A stretch of 64,000 nucleotides of DNA, from contig OZ220090.1 in assembly GCA_964291625.2 (NCBI GenBank), forward strand, positions 992,001 through 1,056,000, written 5' to 3'. Of the stretch, positions 8,404 to 15,359 are shown piece by piece. Under the pieces are notes generated by a model, which was given only the letters and a program-made list of their open reading frames with translations, was not told the origin of the DNA and made no database searches. The translations under genes and the position numbers were made by a program. This DNA is from Candidatus Latescibacterota bacterium (GTDB taxonomy: Bacteria > Latescibacterota > UBA2968 > UBA8231). Numbering within the stretch: position 1 is the first letter of the stretch; every line of letters starts with the position of its first letter.

Positions 8404-9117
8404 CTACCCCAGTACCTCCACCGTCGCCGCCAGCAGCACCTCCCCCTTCATCAGCTGGCACTTCGCCTCGCCGATCGTCCCGTCGACGATCTGCCCGCGC
8501 CCGCGCAGCAACTCCTCCATGCGGTCGAAGGCGGGGGTGTGGCCCATCATCTCCGTCAGGGCGACCTCCTGCTCGCCGTGCTCGGGATGGTTCAGGATCA
8601 CCACCCCGGGGTTCTCCGGCGAGAACCTCCCGTGGCGGTCGGCGCCGGCGTAGTCCTCGCCGATGTGGATCGACGAGTTCGAGGACTGACTCACGCCGAG
8701 GAGGAAGATGTAGCCCCCCTTCTTGATGAGGCGGTCCAGGGCGCAGTCCCTGCCGAGGGCGCCGCGGTTCAGGTCGTCCTCGACCAGGCTTGCCGCGTCG
8801 GGGCCGATGGCGGTCACCGCGTGGGTCGGGTGGAGGCTCCGCACCGCCCCCGGGAACCGCCGGGCCGCTTCGGTGACGGCCCCGTTCAGAGAGGGCGACT
8901 CCAGGGGATCGAAGTACTCGCAGCTGCTGTGGGTGAAGGTCGGCACCATCAGGGTGCCCTGAGGCCCGAGGACGTCCAGGAAGGCCTCCACCACCGTATC
9001 CGCTCCGCCCTCGACGTGCCCCATGCTCGACAGGGAGCTGTGGACCATCACCCGGTCGCCGGACTTCAGGCCCATGGTCCCCAGGCTGCTTGCGATGTCG
9101 GCCCGCGTGACGTTCAT
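8404..9117 (-). CDS. AAC(3)/YokD family N-acetyltransferase
   Basis: VMVHSSLSSMG, GTLMVPTFT, RSLHPTH, NSSIHIGE. Confidence 0.88.
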   Translation of the reverse strand: MNVTRADIASSLGTMGLKSGDRVMVHSSLSSMGHVEGGADTVVEAFLDVLGPQGTLMVPTFTHSSCEYFDPLESPSLNGAVTEAARRFPGAVRSLHPTHAVTAIGPDAASLVEDDLNRGALGRDCALDRLIKKGGYIFLLGVSQSSNSSIHIGEDYAGADRHGRFSPENPGVVILNHPEHGEQEVALTEMMGHTPAFDRMEELLRGRGQIVDGTIGEAKCQLMKGEVLLAATVEVLG

Positions 9118-10577
9118 CGGTCCCACACGCCGTACTCGACGACCAGCTCCACGTCCTCGATCCCCACCTTGCTGCGCAGGTCCGAGGGCCGCTCCAGCAG
9201 GCCGACCTCGAGCCGGTTGGTCCCCTGCCTCAGGGCTGTCCGGTCGACCTCGATCTCGAGCCACATCCCGGCGTAGGGGGCGACCGCCTGCATGGGGCTG
9301 CGACGCGCCCCGTCGAGGGAGACGGCCTCCCCGTTGAGGCGGACCTCCAGCCGGTCGTCCCGCACCAGGTCGTTGAAGCACAGGCGCAGGCGGGTGGAGC
9401 CGATGCGGGCGTTGCCCTCCACGTCGTCGGCGATGGTCAGGGGGATCTGGTGCATGCGGCCGAGGTCGGCGGCGGGATCGATCGACACGGGCAGGTGGGA
9501 GGGGTAGTCGACGCCCTGCACGTGCTCCACGTCGGTGCGGCGCCGCAGGAAGTAGTGCTTGTCCCCCTCGGCGATCTGCTCGGGCCCCGAGAGCTGGCCG
9601 AGGACGGACCGCTCCTGGTCGCCCAGGGGCCAGGACATGAACCAGGTGTAGAGGCCGTCCACCCCCAGGCGCCAGGCGTTGGCCGCCGCCGCCCGGAACA
9701 TGGCCGGCGAGGGATACATCCGGGCGTTGAAGCGGCGGCTCTCGTCGGCGTAGTAGGGGTGCAGCATGTAGTAGACGGAGACGCCCCGGTCGTGGGCCGC
9801 CTCCACGAGCCACTCCACCGGCATGGCGGAGTCGAGGATCATGTGGGCGTAGACCATGGGCACGAGGTAGTCCACGAGCCCTTCCTCGAGCCAGCGCTCC
9901 ACCTCGAGGCCGGTCCTGTGGTTGACCTCCTGCGTCGGGTAGACCCGGGCGCCGACGATGCCCGCGTCCTTCCCCGGGCGGCTGCGCACCGCGTCGGACG
10001 CGCGCCTGAGCCACTCCGTCATCACCGGCCCCCTGGCTTCCGCCTCCTCCGGCGGGAACCAGAAGGCGGTGCCGCCGGGGGCGGCGGCGAAGTCCAGCTC
10101 CACGCCCTCGGTGTCATAGTCGGCGGCCAGCTCGGTGACGCCGCGCAGCATGAAGTCGCGCACGTCCTCCCGCGCCATGCCCGGCCCCCCCTCCCGGGGG
10201 GAGACCTCCTTGGGCAAGCCGGCGTAGGCGCCCATGCGCAGGGAGGCGATGAAGTCCATGCCGCGGTCGTGGGCGCGGTCGACGAGGACCTGCAGCGGGT
10301 CGAGGCCGCGGTCGATGAGGCTCTGCATGTTGTGCCACACCCGCCAGTAGGCGCACTGCTCGAAGCCGCCCTGCATGTCCTGGCCGAAGGGCAGGCCGAC
10401 CTTGGACGGGTAGAACCAGCCGTCGTCCCGGGCCATGCCGTAGACGAAGGTGTCGACGCCGGTGTCGGCCACCTCGTCCACGGGGGCCCAGGCGTCCTCG
10501 AGGCGCATGGGCGGCTCGTGGACGAAGAGGTAGTAGTGGCGGGCGTCGTTGAAATAGATGGTGCGGCGCTGGCGCAT
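9114..10577 (-). CDS. GHL10/DUF187-like putative glycoside hydrolase
   Basis: IYFNDARH, ASLRMG, YDTEGVELDF, VDGLYTW; ATGA overlap with the AAC(3) gene. Confidence 0.7.
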   Translation of the reverse strand: MRQRRTIYFNDARHYYLFVHEPPMRLEDAWAPVDEVADTGVDTFVYGMARDDGWFYPSKVGLPFGQDMQGGFEQCAYWRVWHNMQSLIDRGLDPLQVLVDRAHDRGMDFIASLRMGAYAGLPKEVSPREGGPGMAREDVRDFMLRGVTELAADYDTEGVELDFAAAPGGTAFWFPPEEAEARGPVMTEWLRRASDAVRSRPGKDAGIVGARVYPTQEVNHRTGLEVERWLEEGLVDYLVPMVYAHMILDSAMPVEWLVEAAHDRGVSVYYMLHPYYADESRRFNARMYPSPAMFRAAAANAWRLGVDGLYTWFMSWPLGDQERSVLGQLSGPEQIAEGDKHYFLRRRTDVEHVQGVDYPSHLPVSIDPAADLGRMHQIPLTIADDVEGNARIGSTRLRLCFNDLVRDDRLEVRLNGEAVSLDGARRSPMQAVAPYAGMWLEIEVDRTALRQGTNRLEVGLLERPSDLRSKVGIEDVELVVEYGVWDR

Positions 10578-10588
10578 TGGAGCCTCCT

Positions 10589-12181
10589 TCAGGTGACGCC
10601 CGTGTTCCAGGGGCCCAGGTCGAGGTCGACGAAGCCGCGGTGGAAGTGGCGGCCCATGAGATAGTGGACCTCCAGCTCCACGTCGCGCAGGAGCAGGGGC
10701 GGGATCACCTCCGGCTCGCGCTTCACCAGCTCCACCTCGATCTCGTTGGCCCCCTTCCGAGGCCAGTGGTCGGGCCCGAGGCGGTAGATGAACCAGTAGC
10801 AGGTGCCGGTGCGGTAGCGCGGCCCCCCCATGCGGTACGACTCGTTGATGGTGCGCAGGCCCTCGGCGGGCAGCTCGCGGCCGTTGAGGCGCATGCGCAC
10901 CACGTCGGTCTCGGTGGCGTTGAGCAGACGCAGGCGCAGGATCACCTCGTGGACGCGGCCGTCGGCGTGCCAGCGCGGCAGGTCGTCGGAGACCTGGAGA
11001 GGGATGCGCAGCGGCTCTCCCTCGGACAGCTCCGCCGGCAGCGGGCAGCGGGCCCCCGGCTCCAGCTCGGGGTTGGGGTACCGGTGCGTGCCGGTGGGCA
11101 CGTAGTAGTACTTGTCCTTCGGCGCCATGATCTCCGGGTGGGGCAGCTCGCGCAGCTTCTCGTAGAAGTCGGCCTTGTAGGGCCAGCAGCCGAACCAGTG
11201 CCCGAGGTAGAGGCCGTCGACGCCCTGCTCCCAGTAGTTGTTGGCGCAGGCGCGGATCATCTCGATCGGCGCCTGGTTGAGCCGGTCGGAGTCGACCAGG
11301 CTCTGCACCGTGGCCAGGAGGTGCACGTCCCGGCCTCGGGTCTCGCCCACCAGCTCCCGGTAGTCGGCGTTGCAGTCGACCAGCTCCGGCCCGTGGAAGG
11401 TCTGGCCGATGACGATGTCCACCAGGCCCTCCCGCATCCAGCCGGCCAGGTCGAGGCCGATGTCGTAACAGCCCTGCAGGCTGGTGGGCACGCGCATGGC
11501 GAGGCGCCGGCCCTCGCCGCTGCCGCGAACGGTCTCGGAGACCTGCCGGATCCACTCCGTCATCACCTGCCGTCCGTCGGCGACCTCGTCCGGGTGGAAG
11601 TAGTAAGGCTGGTAGTTGAGCTGCAGCTCGAAGCCGTCCACCGGGTAGCGCCGCACGGCTTCCTCGACGAGGGCGAAGCGCTCCTGCCTCACCTCCTCGT
11701 GGGCGAAGTCGAGGCAGGTGAAGCCCTTCCACGACTCGTCGACGCCGCCCTTGGCGCCGATCTCCAGGTGGGCGTTGTCGAAGCGGAACTCGGAGCAGCG
11801 CACGTCCTCCTCGCGAGGCGCCCTCCCCTGCTGCACCAGCAGCGTCGGATACACGGGCAGACCCTTGGCCCGGGCGCGCTCGCAGATCACCCGCAGGGGG
11901 TCCTCGCCGCGGGCGATCATGCCGCGGGCGTTCTGGTGGGCCCGCCGGAAGATCAGGTGCGGCCAGCGGTCGACGTTGTCGCCCCACAGCTCGCCGACCT
12001 GGGTGTCGTGGAGCACGGTGCGGCCGTCGCCGAGGCAGAACATGATGGCGTCCACGGGCGTGCCGACGAGCTCGTCGACTCCCTGCTCGTACTCGACGCG
12101 CTGCATGGGGGGCTCGTACATGTAGATCAGCGGATGGCGGCCGTCGTGGTAGAAGGCCAGCCGGGGGAGTGCGGTGGTCAT
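10589..12181 (-). CDS. GHL10/DUF187-like putative glycoside hydrolase
   Basis: AFYHDGRH, CLDFAHEEVR, YPVDGFEL, GVDGLYL, C-terminal GANEIEVEL; paralogous to the downstream gene. Confidence 0.7.
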   Translation of the reverse strand: MTTALPRLAFYHDGRHPLIYMYEPPMQRVEYEQGVDELVGTPVDAIMFCLGDGRTVLHDTQVGELWGDNVDRWPHLIFRRAHQNARGMIARGEDPLRVICERARAKGLPVYPTLLVQQGRAPREEDVRCSEFRFDNAHLEIGAKGGVDESWKGFTCLDFAHEEVRQERFALVEEAVRRYPVDGFELQLNYQPYYFHPDEVADGRQVMTEWIRQVSETVRGSGEGRRLAMRVPTSLQGCYDIGLDLAGWMREGLVDIVIGQTFHGPELVDCNADYRELVGETRGRDVHLLATVQSLVDSDRLNQAPIEMIRACANNYWEQGVDGLYLGHWFGCWPYKADFYEKLRELPHPEIMAPKDKYYYVPTGTHRYPNPELEPGARCPLPAELSEGEPLRIPLQVSDDLPRWHADGRVHEVILRLRLLNATETDVVRMRLNGRELPAEGLRTINESYRMGGPRYRTGTCYWFIYRLGPDHWPRKGANEIEVELVKREPEVIPPLLLRDVELEVHYLMGRHFHRGFVDLDLGPWNTGVT

Positions 12182-12276
12182 GGTGACCCCTGTCTGCAGG
12201 ATTGGGTTGAGGGGGTGGTCGAGGCCGACGGCCGGACCGAGCGAAGTCCTGTGGGAAGGGACCTTGGCGGAAGGCC

Positions 12277-13629
12277 CTACGCGGCTCTTGCCTCGGGGTC
12301 GGGCAATTCTTCCCTGTCGAGTCTGCGGTTGTAGACAAGCATCGTCGTGACGACAAGCGGTGACACCTTGAAACGTTCGGCGGCGTCCTGCCGTCTGTCT
12401 TCCGAGAAGTCCTCGCCCAGGAAGTCCAGCAAAGAGCGCAGAGGACAAAGGAACTCGGCGGCGAAGGCCCTCTGCATTTTCTGTCGATAGGTGCTCGCGC
12501 GAGTAGCCGGACGAAGTCTCTCCTCGCAGCCGGCCAGGAGCCGATCCCCGAGAAGACGGGCGACGTCAAAGCGGCGTCCGTATCGCGAACGAGGCCGCAG
12601 CACAAGGCGGCCTGTTCCTCGATCCTGGGTATCGAGGGAGAAGGACAAGCTGCCCGCTACGCTCGAACGAGACAGGACCTGGTCGCTGATGCCGCACAGC
12701 CTGGCCAGCTTGGGGTTGGAGATGGAGGATTCTCCCAGTTGCTCCGTCTGCCGCAGTCTGCCTGCGGCCTCCACCCCCACTCTCCAGGCGGGGACTTGAC
12801 CACGCTCCCCGGGATGCCTGGGCGCCTCATCCGGAAGAGGGACGGAAGCCTCGAAGCCCCGAAAGCCATCCTCGGGAAAGATGTCGAAACCGGACTCCCG
12901 GGCCGCCCTCTGCAGCTTTGGCACAACCTGGTGGTTCTCAGCCACGACCTCCGATACGGCATCCAGCCCCAGGTCGTTGCCTTCTTCAATCAATCGCCCG
13001 ATCAACTCGGGCGGGGCCTCGTCAGGGTCATGGCCCAGGCAGGCTTCGAATCTCCTGTAGAGCGAAACCTCCGGGTCCTCCCTCTCCAGAGACAAGTCGT
13101 GCCAGATGGACTGAAGGTCCGTATCTCCGAGAGAGCATCCATCGAGGCGATCCAGAACACTCCCCATGAATTCTTCGACACCCTCTTCAAATGCCTGGGA
13201 CGGGATGACCCCCGTTTCCTCTGCCTTGTAGTAGAGCGGCTCGGTCTGCGCTATCTCGGACGGTCTCGCAATCAGGGCAATGCGAGAGCCGTCCGACTCG
13301 ATGGTGATGTTCGGCCACAGCCACCCACCCCCGATGGAGGCCATACCGTGCGCTTGAGTCCATCCTGGTTCCGGAGGGGCCGGACGCCGCGAGGGTTCCC
13401 AACGCAGTCGCCACCAGTTCCATGCCAACCACTCGGCCAACCTGCAAGCCGGGAGGTTGGCCGTCTCCCGTAGATCATTCGTTTCACGATCAAGAGCCTG
13501 GGTGAAGCAGGTCCCGTCGACATGGATGCCGAGCTCTCCCAAGGTCGCCTCATCCTCGGCCGGCAGGAATTCGTCTCCGAGACCTCCCCTGGTCTTGCCC
13601 AGCCACCGGGATTCGATTTGCAGCGTCAT
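12277..13629 (-). CDS. ImmA/IrrE (Peptidase_M78/DUF955)-like protein lacking HExxH, with an uncharacterised N-terminal domain
   Basis: C-terminal GRRFDVARLLGD and QRAFAAEFLCP..AERFKVS match the RxRFTxAHELGH / ANxFAAELLMP scaffold; Trp-rich N-domain LAEWLAWNWWRL. Confidence 0.7.
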   Translation of the reverse strand: MTLQIESRWLGKTRGGLGDEFLPAEDEATLGELGIHVDGTCFTQALDRETNDLRETANLPACRLAEWLAWNWWRLRWEPSRRPAPPEPGWTQAHGMASIGGGWLWPNITIESDGSRIALIARPSEIAQTEPLYYKAEETGVIPSQAFEEGVEEFMGSVLDRLDGCSLGDTDLQSIWHDLSLEREDPEVSLYRRFEACLGHDPDEAPPELIGRLIEEGNDLGLDAVSEVVAENHQVVPKLQRAARESGFDIFPEDGFRGFEASVPLPDEAPRHPGERGQVPAWRVGVEAAGRLRQTEQLGESSISNPKLARLCGISDQVLSRSSVAGSLSFSLDTQDRGTGRLVLRPRSRYGRRFDVARLLGDRLLAGCEERLRPATRASTYRQKMQRAFAAEFLCPLRSLLDFLGEDFSEDRRQDAAERFKVSPLVVTTMLVYNRRLDREELPDPEARAA

Positions 13630-14054
13630 TGACTGCGCTCTCCCCATACCCTCTTCACGAACCCGGTGAACCCATCGTACCGCTTCATGGGGTATCCGTG
13701 ATACTCGCCGACACCACGGTTCGAGAGCTGTGCTTCGTATGCAACACCTTCGTCATCAACGGCCCACACATTCTGGGGCCAGTCTCCACGGCGGGTCTCG
13801 CTGACCATTCCCAGGCGAATGCCCAACCTGAGCAGCCTGACAGCGTCTCGACGCCCCCCGATGGTTCCCGCCTCACAGAGTGTCGTGTCGGGACGGTGAA
13901 CGGCTCGCGACAACCCCCATCTCTCTGCTTCCTGAGCGGACTTGTGGTACGGACTGGGCTCGTACCGGGCTTTGCGGGCCATCTGCTCAAGTTCACCCTC
14001 TCCAAGTTCGGCCAGTGACGCTACTGCAGACTTCCTCTTGATCTTGCCGCGCAT
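13626..14054 (-). CDS. Small basic hypothetical protein with SPYHK and YHGYP motifs (putative toxin/RNase)
   Basis: ORF of about 142 aa whose stop overlaps the next ATG (ATGA at 13626-13629); start could extend to 14123. Confidence 0.65.
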   Translation of the reverse strand: MRGKIKRKSAVASLAELGEGELEQMARKARYEPSPYHKSAQEAERWGLSRAVHRPDTTLCEAGTIGGRRDAVRLLRLGIRLGMVSETRRGDWPQNVWAVDDEGVAYEAQLSNRGVGEYHGYPMKRYDGFTGFVKRVWGERSQ

Positions 14055-14234
14055 CCGGGGACGCTTCAAGCCCGCTTGCCTCCTGCCAGGGCCCAAGACC
14101 CGAGCAACTTCCATGCCCACCAAGGATCGCCTTCGTAGAAAGGACCGTCAACCACTCCTGTCGCCTGACATTTGCACCTGACTCCTGCCTGCTCTGCCGG
14201 CGCAACCGGAGGATGCTCCATCAGCACTCTTGCC

Positions 14235-15359
14235 TCAGGTCCAGTTGCGGGGGTCGGGAACGGCGACCCAGGTCGAGCCTTCGGCGATCGACTGCTGGCT
14301 CGCCAGGCCGGGCAGGGTCATGTCCATGGCATGGTCGATGCCGACGGCCGGCTCGACCTCGCCGCGGATGGCGGCGACGAAGTCCTGCACCTCCCAGTAG
14401 TCGCCGCCGCCGTGGCCGGCCTGCAGGGCCTCGGGCGGCGGGCTCTTCCAGAAGTCGGGCAGGAACTCCTCCTCCAGGGCCGCCAGGGGCTCCCACTTCT
14501 GCTGGGGGCCGCGGGAGCGCAGCCACACCTTGGGCTCGGCCTCGTGGCCGTCGCCGGACTCGTAGGCGCCGTCGGTGCCCTGCAGGGCGTAGCGGGCCGT
14601 GTGGTGGGGCCGATCCGAGAGCATGTCGACGCGGATCTGCACGAGGCCGCCGCTGGTCATGCGGCACATCATGGTCACCGAGTCCTCCATCTCGTAGCGG
14701 TCGCCCCGGGGGTCGAGGTAGTGGTGGCCGGTGCCGGCGGCCCACACGGCGGCGACGCGGTCGGGGCGCGCGCTCCCGGCGTTGAACCACTGGTAGACCG
14801 GGCCGAGGCTGTGGGTCGGGTAGGTGCAGCCGTTGACGCCGGTCTGCCAGCGGCGCCGCCAGGGGGTCGCCTCGTTGAGGCCGCGGAGCTGGTGGATGTA
14901 GGCGCCCTCGCCGTAGTAGGGGTCGCCGAAGAGCCCCCGCCGGGCCAGCTCGCGCACAAGGACGTTCGGCTTCATGTAGGTGAAGTTCTCGGCCATCATG
15001 TAGGTGGCGGTGCTGCGGCGGGCGGAGCGCACCAGGTCCCGGCACTCCTCGATGGAGACCCCGGCGGTGACCTCGCTCAGCACGTGGATGCCGCGATCGA
15101 GGGCGAGGATGGCCTGGGGCGCGTGCCACTGCATCGGCGTACCGATGATCACGGCGTCCACCGCGCCGGAGTCGAGCAGCTCTTCGGCGTCGGTGAAGGC
15201 GTGCTCGACGCCGAGCTCGGCGGCGTTGGCCCGCAGAGGCTCGAGGCGCACGTCGCAGAGGGCGGTCAGCTCGGTGGCGGGGTTGGCCCCCAGGGCCCGG
15301 ACGAAGCTGTTGCCCCGGCCGGCGGCGCCGATGATGCCGAAGCGGATGCGGTCCGCCAT
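14235..15359 (-). CDS. Gfo/Idh/MocA family oxidoreductase
   Basis: FGIIGAAGRG, DAVIIGTP..H, HVLSEV, YPTHS, GHGGGD. Confidence 0.9.
   Translation of the reverse strand: MADRIRFGIIGAAGRGNSFVRALGANPATELTALCDVRLEPLRANAAELGVEHAFTDAEELLDSGAVDAVIIGTPMQWHAPQAILALDRGIHVLSEVTAGVSIEECRDLVRSARRSTATYMMAENFTYMKPNVLVRELARRGLFGDPYYGEGAYIHQLRGLNEATPWRRRWQTGVNGCTYPTHSLGPVYQWFNAGSARPDRVAAVWAAGTGHHYLDPRGDRYEMEDSVTMMCRMTSGGLVQIRVDMLSDRPHHTARYALQGTDGAYESGDGHEAEPKVWLRSRGPQQKWEPLAALEEEFLPDFWKSPPPEALQAGHGGGDYWEVQDFVAAIRGEVEPAVGIDHAMDMTLPGLASQQSIAEGSTWVAVPDPRNWT

Follow-up and report, generated by a model that had tools for sequence, protein, structure and literature searches.

Proteins of the ImmA/IrrE/CapP type are understood as proteases that cut repressors and, in RosmerTA-like systems, as the hub antitoxin. 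As reported in the part of PMC10440598 dealing with this hub, ImmA-type proteins are validated antitoxins that go together with diverse toxins, with a toxin-first order in 58%. The RosmerTA systems (NetFlax node D25) treated there are two-gene operons, often toxin-first, of a varied small toxin and an antitoxin with the ImmA/M78 fold. A pair of overlapping genes with a similar arrangement is found in a 64,000 nt stretch of the genome of a Candidatus Latescibacterota bacterium (contig OZ220090.1, positions 992,001 to 1,056,000; hereafter the window). Gene 1 codes for a small basic protein and gene 2 for a large acidic protein whose C-terminal part resembles the M78 peptidases.

The pair is a real, widespread and uncharacterised module, and no description of its family was found in the literature searched. 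Gene 1 matched no family in Pfam, NCBIfam, PHROGs or PADLOC; neither gene had a significant match in NCBIfam or PHROGs, and Pfam gave none for the pair. With PADLOC-DB v2.0.0 of 2023 the sole match of gene 2 was a weak one to RmrA (E 0.006, 13.5 bits), confined to the M78 region (residues 287-428 against profile positions 125-259 of 363). The pair therefore has no name in these curated libraries, as the original prediction had supposed. By analogy it appears to work like the RosmerTA/ImmA-hub systems, apparently without being a member by the tests applied: the RmrA match is far too weak to establish membership, gene 1 matches no RmrT model in the same release, and gene 2 carries an acidic N-terminal half of 280 residues (PC4-like plus helical) instead of a small N-terminal Xre helix-turn-helix (HTH) domain. 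For Rosmer-like systems the NetFlax authors suggest, in the passage of PMC10440598 concerned, that the HTH is cleaved. This cannot apply here since HExxH and the Glu ligand are missing from gene 2 and all of its 86 aligned relatives.

Loss of the zinc site in the M78-like domain of gene 2

Gene 2 has relatives in at least 1,766 clusters at 90% identity, counted among 8,000 candidates scored. Pfam PF06114 (Peptidase_M78) scored 15.9 bits on gene 2 and thereby stayed under the cut-off of 22 bits; neither the gene 2 profile nor its C-terminal 171 residues matched any sequence of a solved structure. An AlphaFold (AF2) model was built from 45 relatives, with a predicted local distance difference test (pLDDT) of 88.8 and a predicted template modelling score of 0.89. 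Residues 284-450 of this model aligned with CapP (7t5t_A) at Z 11.1 over 163 residues, with a root-mean-square deviation (rmsd) of 3.2 and 20% identity, followed by PprI (8sln_A, Z 8.5) and the Mycobacterium tuberculosis regulators 6d2s_A (Z 8.2) and 6cyj (Z 7.5). Foldseek against the PDB also ranked CapP first (probability 1.00, E 2.8e-3), with nothing at E<=0.001.

The gene 2 family was then aligned by hhalign with six canonical M78 proteins of the same genome (probability 90.6%, E 1.3e-6). These six all keep H394, E395, H398 and E422 in the numbering of their alignment. In gene 2 the corresponding positions of HExxH are R358 for the first His, L359 for the Glu and D362 for the second His, and Q383 stands in place of the Glu that is the third ligand. 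All 86 relatives keep R358, D362, R382 and Q383, and in none of them do the last 150 residues contain an HExxH. In divergent paralogous subfamilies the Asp is replaced by Glu or Tyr, while the Arg and the Arg-Gln are retained. The surroundings of the former active site are conserved as well (RRF..A....., and.QRAFAAEFL.P versus ..RAFAAELLLP). One gene 2 paralogue of 452 aa clears the Pfam M78 cut-off with 34.9 versus 22 bits; the homology to M78 is therefore settled and the loss of the active site ancient. Judged from these alignments, gene 2 represents an M78 fold that is catalytically dead throughout the family, as the original prediction had proposed from the replacement of HExxH and the Glu ligand in a single protein.

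The fold of residues 284-450 is shared with the protease-repressor switches ImmA/ImmR, IrrE(PprI)/DdrO and CapP/CapH (MEROPS M78, COG2856, PF06114). Unlike these, gene 2 lacks the zinc ligands and a C-terminal GAF-like domain as in CapP. Its only conserved partner is gene 1 and not an Xre-type repressor; the family searches with gene 1 gave no HTH, and its structural matches include no DNA-binding regulator. The pair also differs from the switches in having no association with prophages or integrative and conjugative elements: there were no copies in 50,697 phage records and one locus in IMG/VR, a near absence for which we dropped the idea of a phage regulatory module.

The set of ImmA/IrrE-type proteins in the source genome is unusually rich. 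At least eight further proteins lie above the Pfam M78 cut-off, six of them seen with an intact HExxH (loci L081-L087).

Linkage and distribution of the pair

Starting from gene 2, a gene 1 profile match was found upstream on the same strand at 75 of 80 genome loci. After removal of 5 near-duplicates, a near-full-length gene 1 adjoined gene 2 at 67 of 75 loci and no intact one was seen at the other 8. Searching in the opposite direction, from gene 1 in 168 genomes of the phylum, gave 17 matches in 11 genomes, all of them next to a gene 2. On plasmids, gene 1 lay just upstream in all six cases of a full-length gene 2 match. The co-occurrence implied by the original prediction is thus confirmed from both sides. 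Among the 67 non-redundant loci the genes overlap by 4 nt in 30 and by 16 nt in 12, the lengths being obtained with a nearest-start heuristic. No conserved third gene was found among 407 neighbouring open reading frames (ORFs) at the 75 loci, where the largest cluster occurred at 5 loci.

Species-representative genomes of many phyla contain at least 376 relatives. The hosts belong to Latescibacterota, Acidobacteriota (Vicinamibacterales), Binatia, Alpha-, Beta- and Gammaproteobacteria, Nitrospirales, Myxococcota, Dehalococcoidia, Spirochaetia and Mycobacteriaceae and include the cultured genera Afipia, Bradyrhizobium, Ancylobacter, Xanthobacter, Thauera and Inquilinus. Plasmid copies are few (8 of 72,556 records). 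The source genome has three divergent paralogous pairs. Together with the insertion described below, these data define the pair as a conserved, self-contained and mobile two-gene module.

The further pairs of the source genome lie outside the window (L112, G000:C1:1589879-1590241, and L116, G000:C1:3854903-3855274). In L116, which includes the gene 2 paralogue of 452 aa, ARAVGY stands where gene 2 would have HExxH, and the partner gene 1 has YKGWP and not YHGYP. A decayed copy, one of the 17 pairs found from gene 1, is present in a genome of the same genus (L117, G007:C1:2964362-2967556): the gene 1 profile aligns with two separate segments, its middle part being absent, and gene 2 is broken up into two ORFs. 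On the plasmid pTM2 of Tistrella mobilis the gene 1 homologue (L090, 5436-5963; SPEHK ... TYKGWP) is not annotated, and its partner, the gene downstream of it, is annotated as 'ImmA/IrrE family metallo-endopeptidase' yet lacks HExxH. On a plasmid of Allorhizobium pseudoryzae (L098, 8778-10129) the pair is followed just downstream by another overlapping pair of a small and a large hypothetical gene (297 nt and 1,059 nt).

Precise insertion into an operon spacer

The pair was first noticed as a low-GC interruption of catabolic genes. This holds: the cassette has a GC content of 0.61-0.65 compared with 0.70-0.76 in the flanks, which code for GHL10-like hydrolases, a Gfo/Idh/MocA oxidoreductase and an Ldh_2 enzyme. 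The genome of the window and 30 relatives, 31 in all, were searched with a 4.8-kb query across the pair. Four genomes of the same genus (G002, G004, G006 and G007) have a precise empty site. In these, the window's left flank (to 12184) and its right flank (from 14233) are present at 92-97% identity and abut with 0-4 nt between them, the 2,048 bp being absent; a GHL10-like gene starts a few bases after the stop codon of the Gfo/Idh/MocA oxidoreductase gene. Since the flanks abut in the sister genomes, the cassette was inserted into a spacer of the sugar-catabolic operon, in the same orientation. It constitutes a precise and recent insertion. The low-GC two-gene unit of the original prediction therefore stands, whereas its limits had been set too narrowly, the inserted unit being wider than the two genes.

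Neither a recombinase nor a tRNA-type target nor convincing terminal repeats were found at the insertion. A repeat scan detected only short two-copy repeats, and promoter and terminator scans gave no signal above the level of shuffled sequences. One of the repeats is a 13-nt direct repeat, CTCTTGCCTC(G/A)GG, at 12285-12297 and 14227-14239. The second copy crosses the right insertion junction; the first is within gene 2, close to its 3' end. The repeat is probably due to chance; it may also have been left by the recombination event behind the insertion.

Further along the flank, two adjacent paralogous GHL10-like (glycosyl hydrolase-like 10) genes occupy 9114-10556 and 10589-12181 on the minus strand, one above and the other below the Pfam cut-off. 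The row of sugar-catabolic genes ends at 8404-9222, also on the minus strand, with an ORF matching Antibiotic_NAT (Pfam; aminoglycoside 3-N-acetyltransferase family; E 5.4e-48).

Anatomy of the two genes

The features of the cassette are compiled in Table 1. The motifs noted at the outset were all found again: ARYEPSPYHK, DWPQNVWAV, YEAQLSN and GEYHGYP in gene 1, and RLLGD, QKMQRAFAAEFLCP and the Trp-rich AEWLAWNWWRLRW in gene 2. The coupling of the genes by an ATGA, likewise noted then, was located at the junction. As for the extent of gene 1, the ORF was recognised correctly and the start codon probably was not. Starting at the ATG, the gene would span 13626-14054. The true start is probably the TTG lying 15 nt upstream of it, because the resulting N-terminus MKRPR... 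fits the MKRPQKR... of the homologues and a Shine-Dalgarno-like AGGAGG sits 9 nt ahead.

Table 1. Features of the inserted cassette (positions in the window).
Feature	Position	Strand	Basis or remark
Inserted cassette, 2,048 bp; both genes with non-coding sequence of 92 nt downstream and about 163-178 nt upstream	12185-14232		Empty sites in same-genus genomes
Gene 1, putative toxin, small basic protein	13626-14069	minus	147 aa from TTG 14069; 142 aa from ATG 14054
Shine-Dalgarno-like AGGAGG hexamer	14079-14084	minus	9 nt before TTG 14069; read from sequence
ATGA, gene 1 stop overlapping gene 2 start	13626-13629	minus	Putative translational coupling
Gene 2, putative antitoxin/sensor, acidic multidomain protein, 450 aa	12277-13629 (including stop codon)	minus	ORF
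Gene 2 residues 1-160, Trp-rich acidic PC4/Whirly-like domain, CdiI-immunity-like fold	13150-13629	minus	VIA-align fold matches
Gene 2 residues 161-250, acidic helical domain	12880-13149	minus	Helices 171-246 in model
Gene 2 residues 284-450, M78/ImmA/IrrE-like fold without zinc site	12280-12780	minus	Structure and profile comparison
R358-L359-L360-G361-D362 codons in place of HExxH	12544-12558	minus	Profile-profile alignment
Q383 codon in place of the third zinc ligand (Glu)	12481-12483	minus	Aligned to invariant E422 of the canonical M78 alignment

Conservation and predicted fold of gene 1

A HMMER search of 1.84 billion representatives (E<=1e-3) found gene 1 relatives in 802 clusters at 50% identity. 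The best 150 of these 802 are 60-297 aa long. The gene 1 profile reached only E 0.62 against the sequences of solved chains, a chance match, and the ESM Atlas returned unnamed clusters only. The protein is basic, with an isoelectric point (pI) of 9.66 and a family median of 9.3 over 69 sequences. In all 69 sequences H37, C60, A71, G78, P93 and W97 are invariant; E107 is present in 68 of 69, H119 in all 66 non-gap positions and D127 in 52 of 69. Divergent subfamilies replace H119 by Lys (YKGYP, YKGWP) and have lost E107 (LWSGS), whereas C60 is kept in all of them and H37-K38 with one exception, an Asn.

The AF2 model of gene 1 (pLDDT 82.3) is of lower confidence in residues 40-70. Its best structural match is the CdiA-CT toxin 5t87_E of Cupriavidus taiwanensis, of which 65 of 69 residues align with model residues 63-142 at rmsd 2.9; the Z score of 5.8 lies below the distinctive level of the aligner, and a Z of this size can reflect a common arrangement. 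Among the 50 matches listed, 19 are chains from toxin-antitoxin, contact-dependent inhibition (CDI), Maf and colicin entries with Z 2.4-4.0; RelE, YoeB, MqsR, HigB2, ParE, BrnT, colicin D, several CdiA-CT, YxiD and MafB are represented. A second structural listing of 34 matches gave the same toxin-dominated picture. From the model, the fold of gene 1 is likely BECR-like. The original prediction of a BECR-like toxin is thereby kept as a resemblance of the model, which is weaker than that prediction implied, the matches other than the best having Z scores of at most 4.0 and Foldseek giving none at its threshold. Its idea of two functional His, one near each end, fits the close subfamily and fails in the divergent ones, where the second His is a Lys; the invariant Cys60 had been missed.

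This Cys offers another explanation. Gene 1 could be a toxin, neutralised by gene 2, without being an RNase. With C60 and either H37 or H119 it would act on another target, as a thiol enzyme (a peptidase, an amidase or a transferase) or as a protein that binds metal. C60 is one of the few residues invariant in 69 of 69 sequences and, unlike H119 and E107, it is kept in all divergent subfamilies. The order of Cys, helix, His-bearing strands and Asp127 recalls minimal papain-like layouts. On the other hand, no papain-like or NlpC/P60 structure is among the 50 and 34 matches listed, the model places C60 in a loop of lower confidence and not at the N-terminus of a helix, and the Asp is present in only 52 of the 69 sequences. 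We regard a thiol or metal chemistry as quite improbable.

The N-terminal half of gene 2

Residues 1-160 of gene 2 gave their best match with CdiI of Burkholderia dolosa (5ffp_B; VIA-align Z 6.7, 121 residues aligned, rmsd 3.6), followed by CdiI of Enterobacter cloacae (4ntq_B, Z 5.3), Pur-alpha and the immunity protein NMB0503 (both Z 5.2), Whirly (Z 4.3) and MRP1/2 (Z 4.2). The classification given in PMC9424270, as far as it concerns these entries, places the CdiI structures 4NTQ_B and 5FFP_A in one PC4-like superfamily together with PurA, MRP and Whirly, and the same source describes the PC4-like fold as a scaffold that binds toxins and nucleic acids. An ESM Atlas search with residues 1-250 gave no usable match. 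Gene 2 has a pI of 4.88 (median 5.2 over 86 sequences) and a net charge of -22, to which the N-terminal domain and the helical domain contribute -13 each and the M78-like domain about +6. By analogy, an acidic domain of the PC4-like fold is easier to reconcile with an immunity function, in which it would bind a nuclease, than with binding to DNA. Binding of single-stranded DNA (ssDNA) by this domain was considered and dropped as a first guess since the domain is strongly acidic.

The pair has features in common with CdiA-CT/CdiI and with the BECR toxins of pairs such as RelE, YoeB, MqsR and colicin D: a small basic protein modelled with an alpha/beta, toxin-like fold, a PC4/Whirly-like immunity fold in the N-terminal domain of gene 2, and the complementary charges of a basic and an acidic partner. 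It differs in that the likeness is structural only and weak, with no sequence match to solved chains, that gene 1 has no delivery domain and that the immunity-like domain of gene 2 is fused to a dead peptidase.

These likenesses could mean that the pair is an orphan polymorphic-toxin/immunity cassette of the CdiA-CT/CdiI type, serving interbacterial competition or as an immunity reservoir. The best folds are indeed CdiA-CT for gene 1 and CdiI for the N-terminal domain of gene 2, both partners of the complex 5hkq were matched (toxin Z 2.6, immunity Z 4.0), and the putative toxin gene precedes the one with the immunity-like domain. A polymorphic toxin would be expected as the end of a long protein; a search of proteins of 250-2000 aa found no long or fused form of gene 1, a null result that is weak evidence, and gene 1 is equipped with a start codon and a Shine-Dalgarno site of its own. 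CdiA, CdiB and Rhs do not occur among the 25 commonest Pfam families tallied for 277 neighbours, and CdiI proteins have nothing equivalent to the additional 290 residues of gene 2. An origin of this kind therefore seems very improbable to us.

Genomic context

The neighbour set comprises 277 ORFs of at least 100 aa from the 75 loci left after dropping the near-duplicates, called with a crude gene caller, and the PADLOC and Pfam tallies cover the 25 commonest families. Some copies lie within evident defence islands. On a Massilia plasmid DptG/DptH lie on one side of the pair and a patatin and a PD-(D/E)XK nuclease on the other. The copy on Agrobacterium pAt2 is flanked by two restriction endonucleases with an integrase adjoining, and that on a Rhizobium plasmid is near IS256, a methyltransferase, a dGTPase, a WYL protein and a RecB-like nuclease. 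The 277 nearest neighbours include matches to DISARM, Hma, AbiEii, HEPN, restriction and integrase/transposase families, and by both tallies real multi-gene defence systems are present at some loci. A control of 132 random genes also matched PADLOC, with 67 families compared with 122 and 398 for the neighbour sets. In view of this control and of tallies restricted to 25 families we make no claim of enrichment: the defence association in a subset of loci is anecdotal, and the enrichment in defence islands expected from the original prediction was not established.

Most contexts are metabolic, and in the window the cassette lies inside a sugar-catabolic operon on the same strand. This would agree with a non-toxic regulatory or stress pair, in which the pseudo-peptidase of gene 2 serves as a scaffold or anti-repressor-like sensor derived from the ImmA/IrrE/CapP switches and sequesters gene 1, a nucleic-acid-binding regulator, with no killing or growth arrest. 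The M78 relatives nearest in fold (CapP, PprI/IrrE and the M. tuberculosis Xre-COG2856 proteins) are regulators, and the basic gene 1 protein has an N-terminal tail rich in Lys and Arg. Gene 1, however, has neither an HTH nor any other DNA-binding family match, toxins and not regulators dominate its fold list, and the contexts have no regulated target gene in common. The spread across phyla, the precise insertion and loss and the divergent paralogues also fit selfish or defence modules better. We consider a purely regulatory pair unlikely.

A putative toxin-antitoxin module with a pseudo-peptidase antitoxin

The reading we prefer, with a probability of about 0.5, is a type II toxin-antitoxin or abortive-infection module in which the toxin gene comes first and a pseudo-peptidase serves as the antitoxin, with the ImmA-hub (RosmerTA-like) systems as its relatives. 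Gene 1 would be a small basic toxin whose C-terminal 80 residues form a helix and a three-stranded sheet of the CdiA-CT/RelE type (BECR-like), probably an RNA nuclease using some of H37-K38, C60, E107 and H119. Gene 2 would be produced by translational coupling with gene 1 and would neutralise it by binding it directly with the strongly acidic N-terminal half, whose fold is PC4/Whirly-like as in CdiI. The M78-like domain cannot cut; its zinc site has been rebuilt as the invariant polar site R358, D362, R382 and Q383, which may act as a ligand- or protein-binding switch that controls the release of the toxin.

The anatomy fits such a module: a small basic protein whose fold is toxin-like stands beside an acidic one with an immunity-like domain. 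The genetics fits a toxin and its neutraliser because of the strict linkage, the autonomy, the patchy spread, the precise gain, the paralogy and the occasional decay; as in type II modules, a tightly linked, apparently co-translated two-gene operon moves as a unit. That the rebuilt site is invariant argues that the M78-like cleft still binds something. The original prediction had named ssDNA or a phage protein as examples of a ligand, which amounts to conjecture. CapP, according to the portion of PMC13228613 on its structure, binds ssDNA in a groove between the peptidase domain and a second domain. The alignment with gene 2 is limited to CapP residues 7-205 of 278 and no counterpart of the second domain was found in gene 2; ssDNA sensing therefore cannot simply be transferred.

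A predicted complex of the two proteins gives weak support to their binding without providing an interface. The score was 0.48 (runs 0.64, 0.27 and 0.48) compared with 0.01 for the best of three controls, the contacts agreed between the runs to at least 69%, and the partner had a pLDDT of 73 or more. Of 80 solved complexes 58 passed the mark for this score, as did 2 of 110 mismatched pairs; passes at 0.60 or less came from only 7 of the solved complexes and from both of these mismatches, and a pass in this range is wrong more frequently than right unless the pairing is likely beforehand.

Several points weigh against a toxin-antitoxin module, among them the low grade of this complex. Gene 2 is three times the size of gene 1 and has no obvious DNA-binding autoregulator, unlike the antitoxins of classical type II systems. 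The resemblance of gene 1 to toxins lies below the level that the aligner treats as distinctive, Foldseek with the gene 1 model against the PDB found nothing at E<=0.001, and residues 1-60, with H37, K38 and C60, are modelled less confidently. As H119 and E107 are lost in divergent subfamilies, the catalytic assignment is unsure. Most of the neighbouring genes, including those in the window, are metabolic, and the random genes also matched PADLOC families. The family is known here from sequences and models.

A bolder proposal, which we hold to be doubtful, makes gene 2 a non-catalytic sensor with a peptidase fold. The Arg-Asp-Arg-Gln cleft would recognise an infection or stress ligand or a peptide, possibly the conserved SPYHK segment of the toxin itself, and would thereby release an unclassified nuclease toxin allosterically from the fused CdiI-like domain. 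The pair would then represent a widespread new class of defence or addiction systems, and a single polypeptide would link the immunity folds of polymorphic toxins with ImmA-type regulation.

For the biology of these elements, the empty sites in the sister genomes are a clean natural example of cassettes entering operons without a recombinase of their own. For the M78 family, gene 2 points to a large branch in which catalysis has been abandoned altogether, the rebuilt site is invariant and the domain is fused to an immunity-protein fold. If the toxin-antitoxin or defence reading is true, gene 1 would be a new toxin family, the ImmA scaffold could work without proteolysis, and the pair would provide a compact and tractable model of a pseudo-enzyme controlling a toxin.

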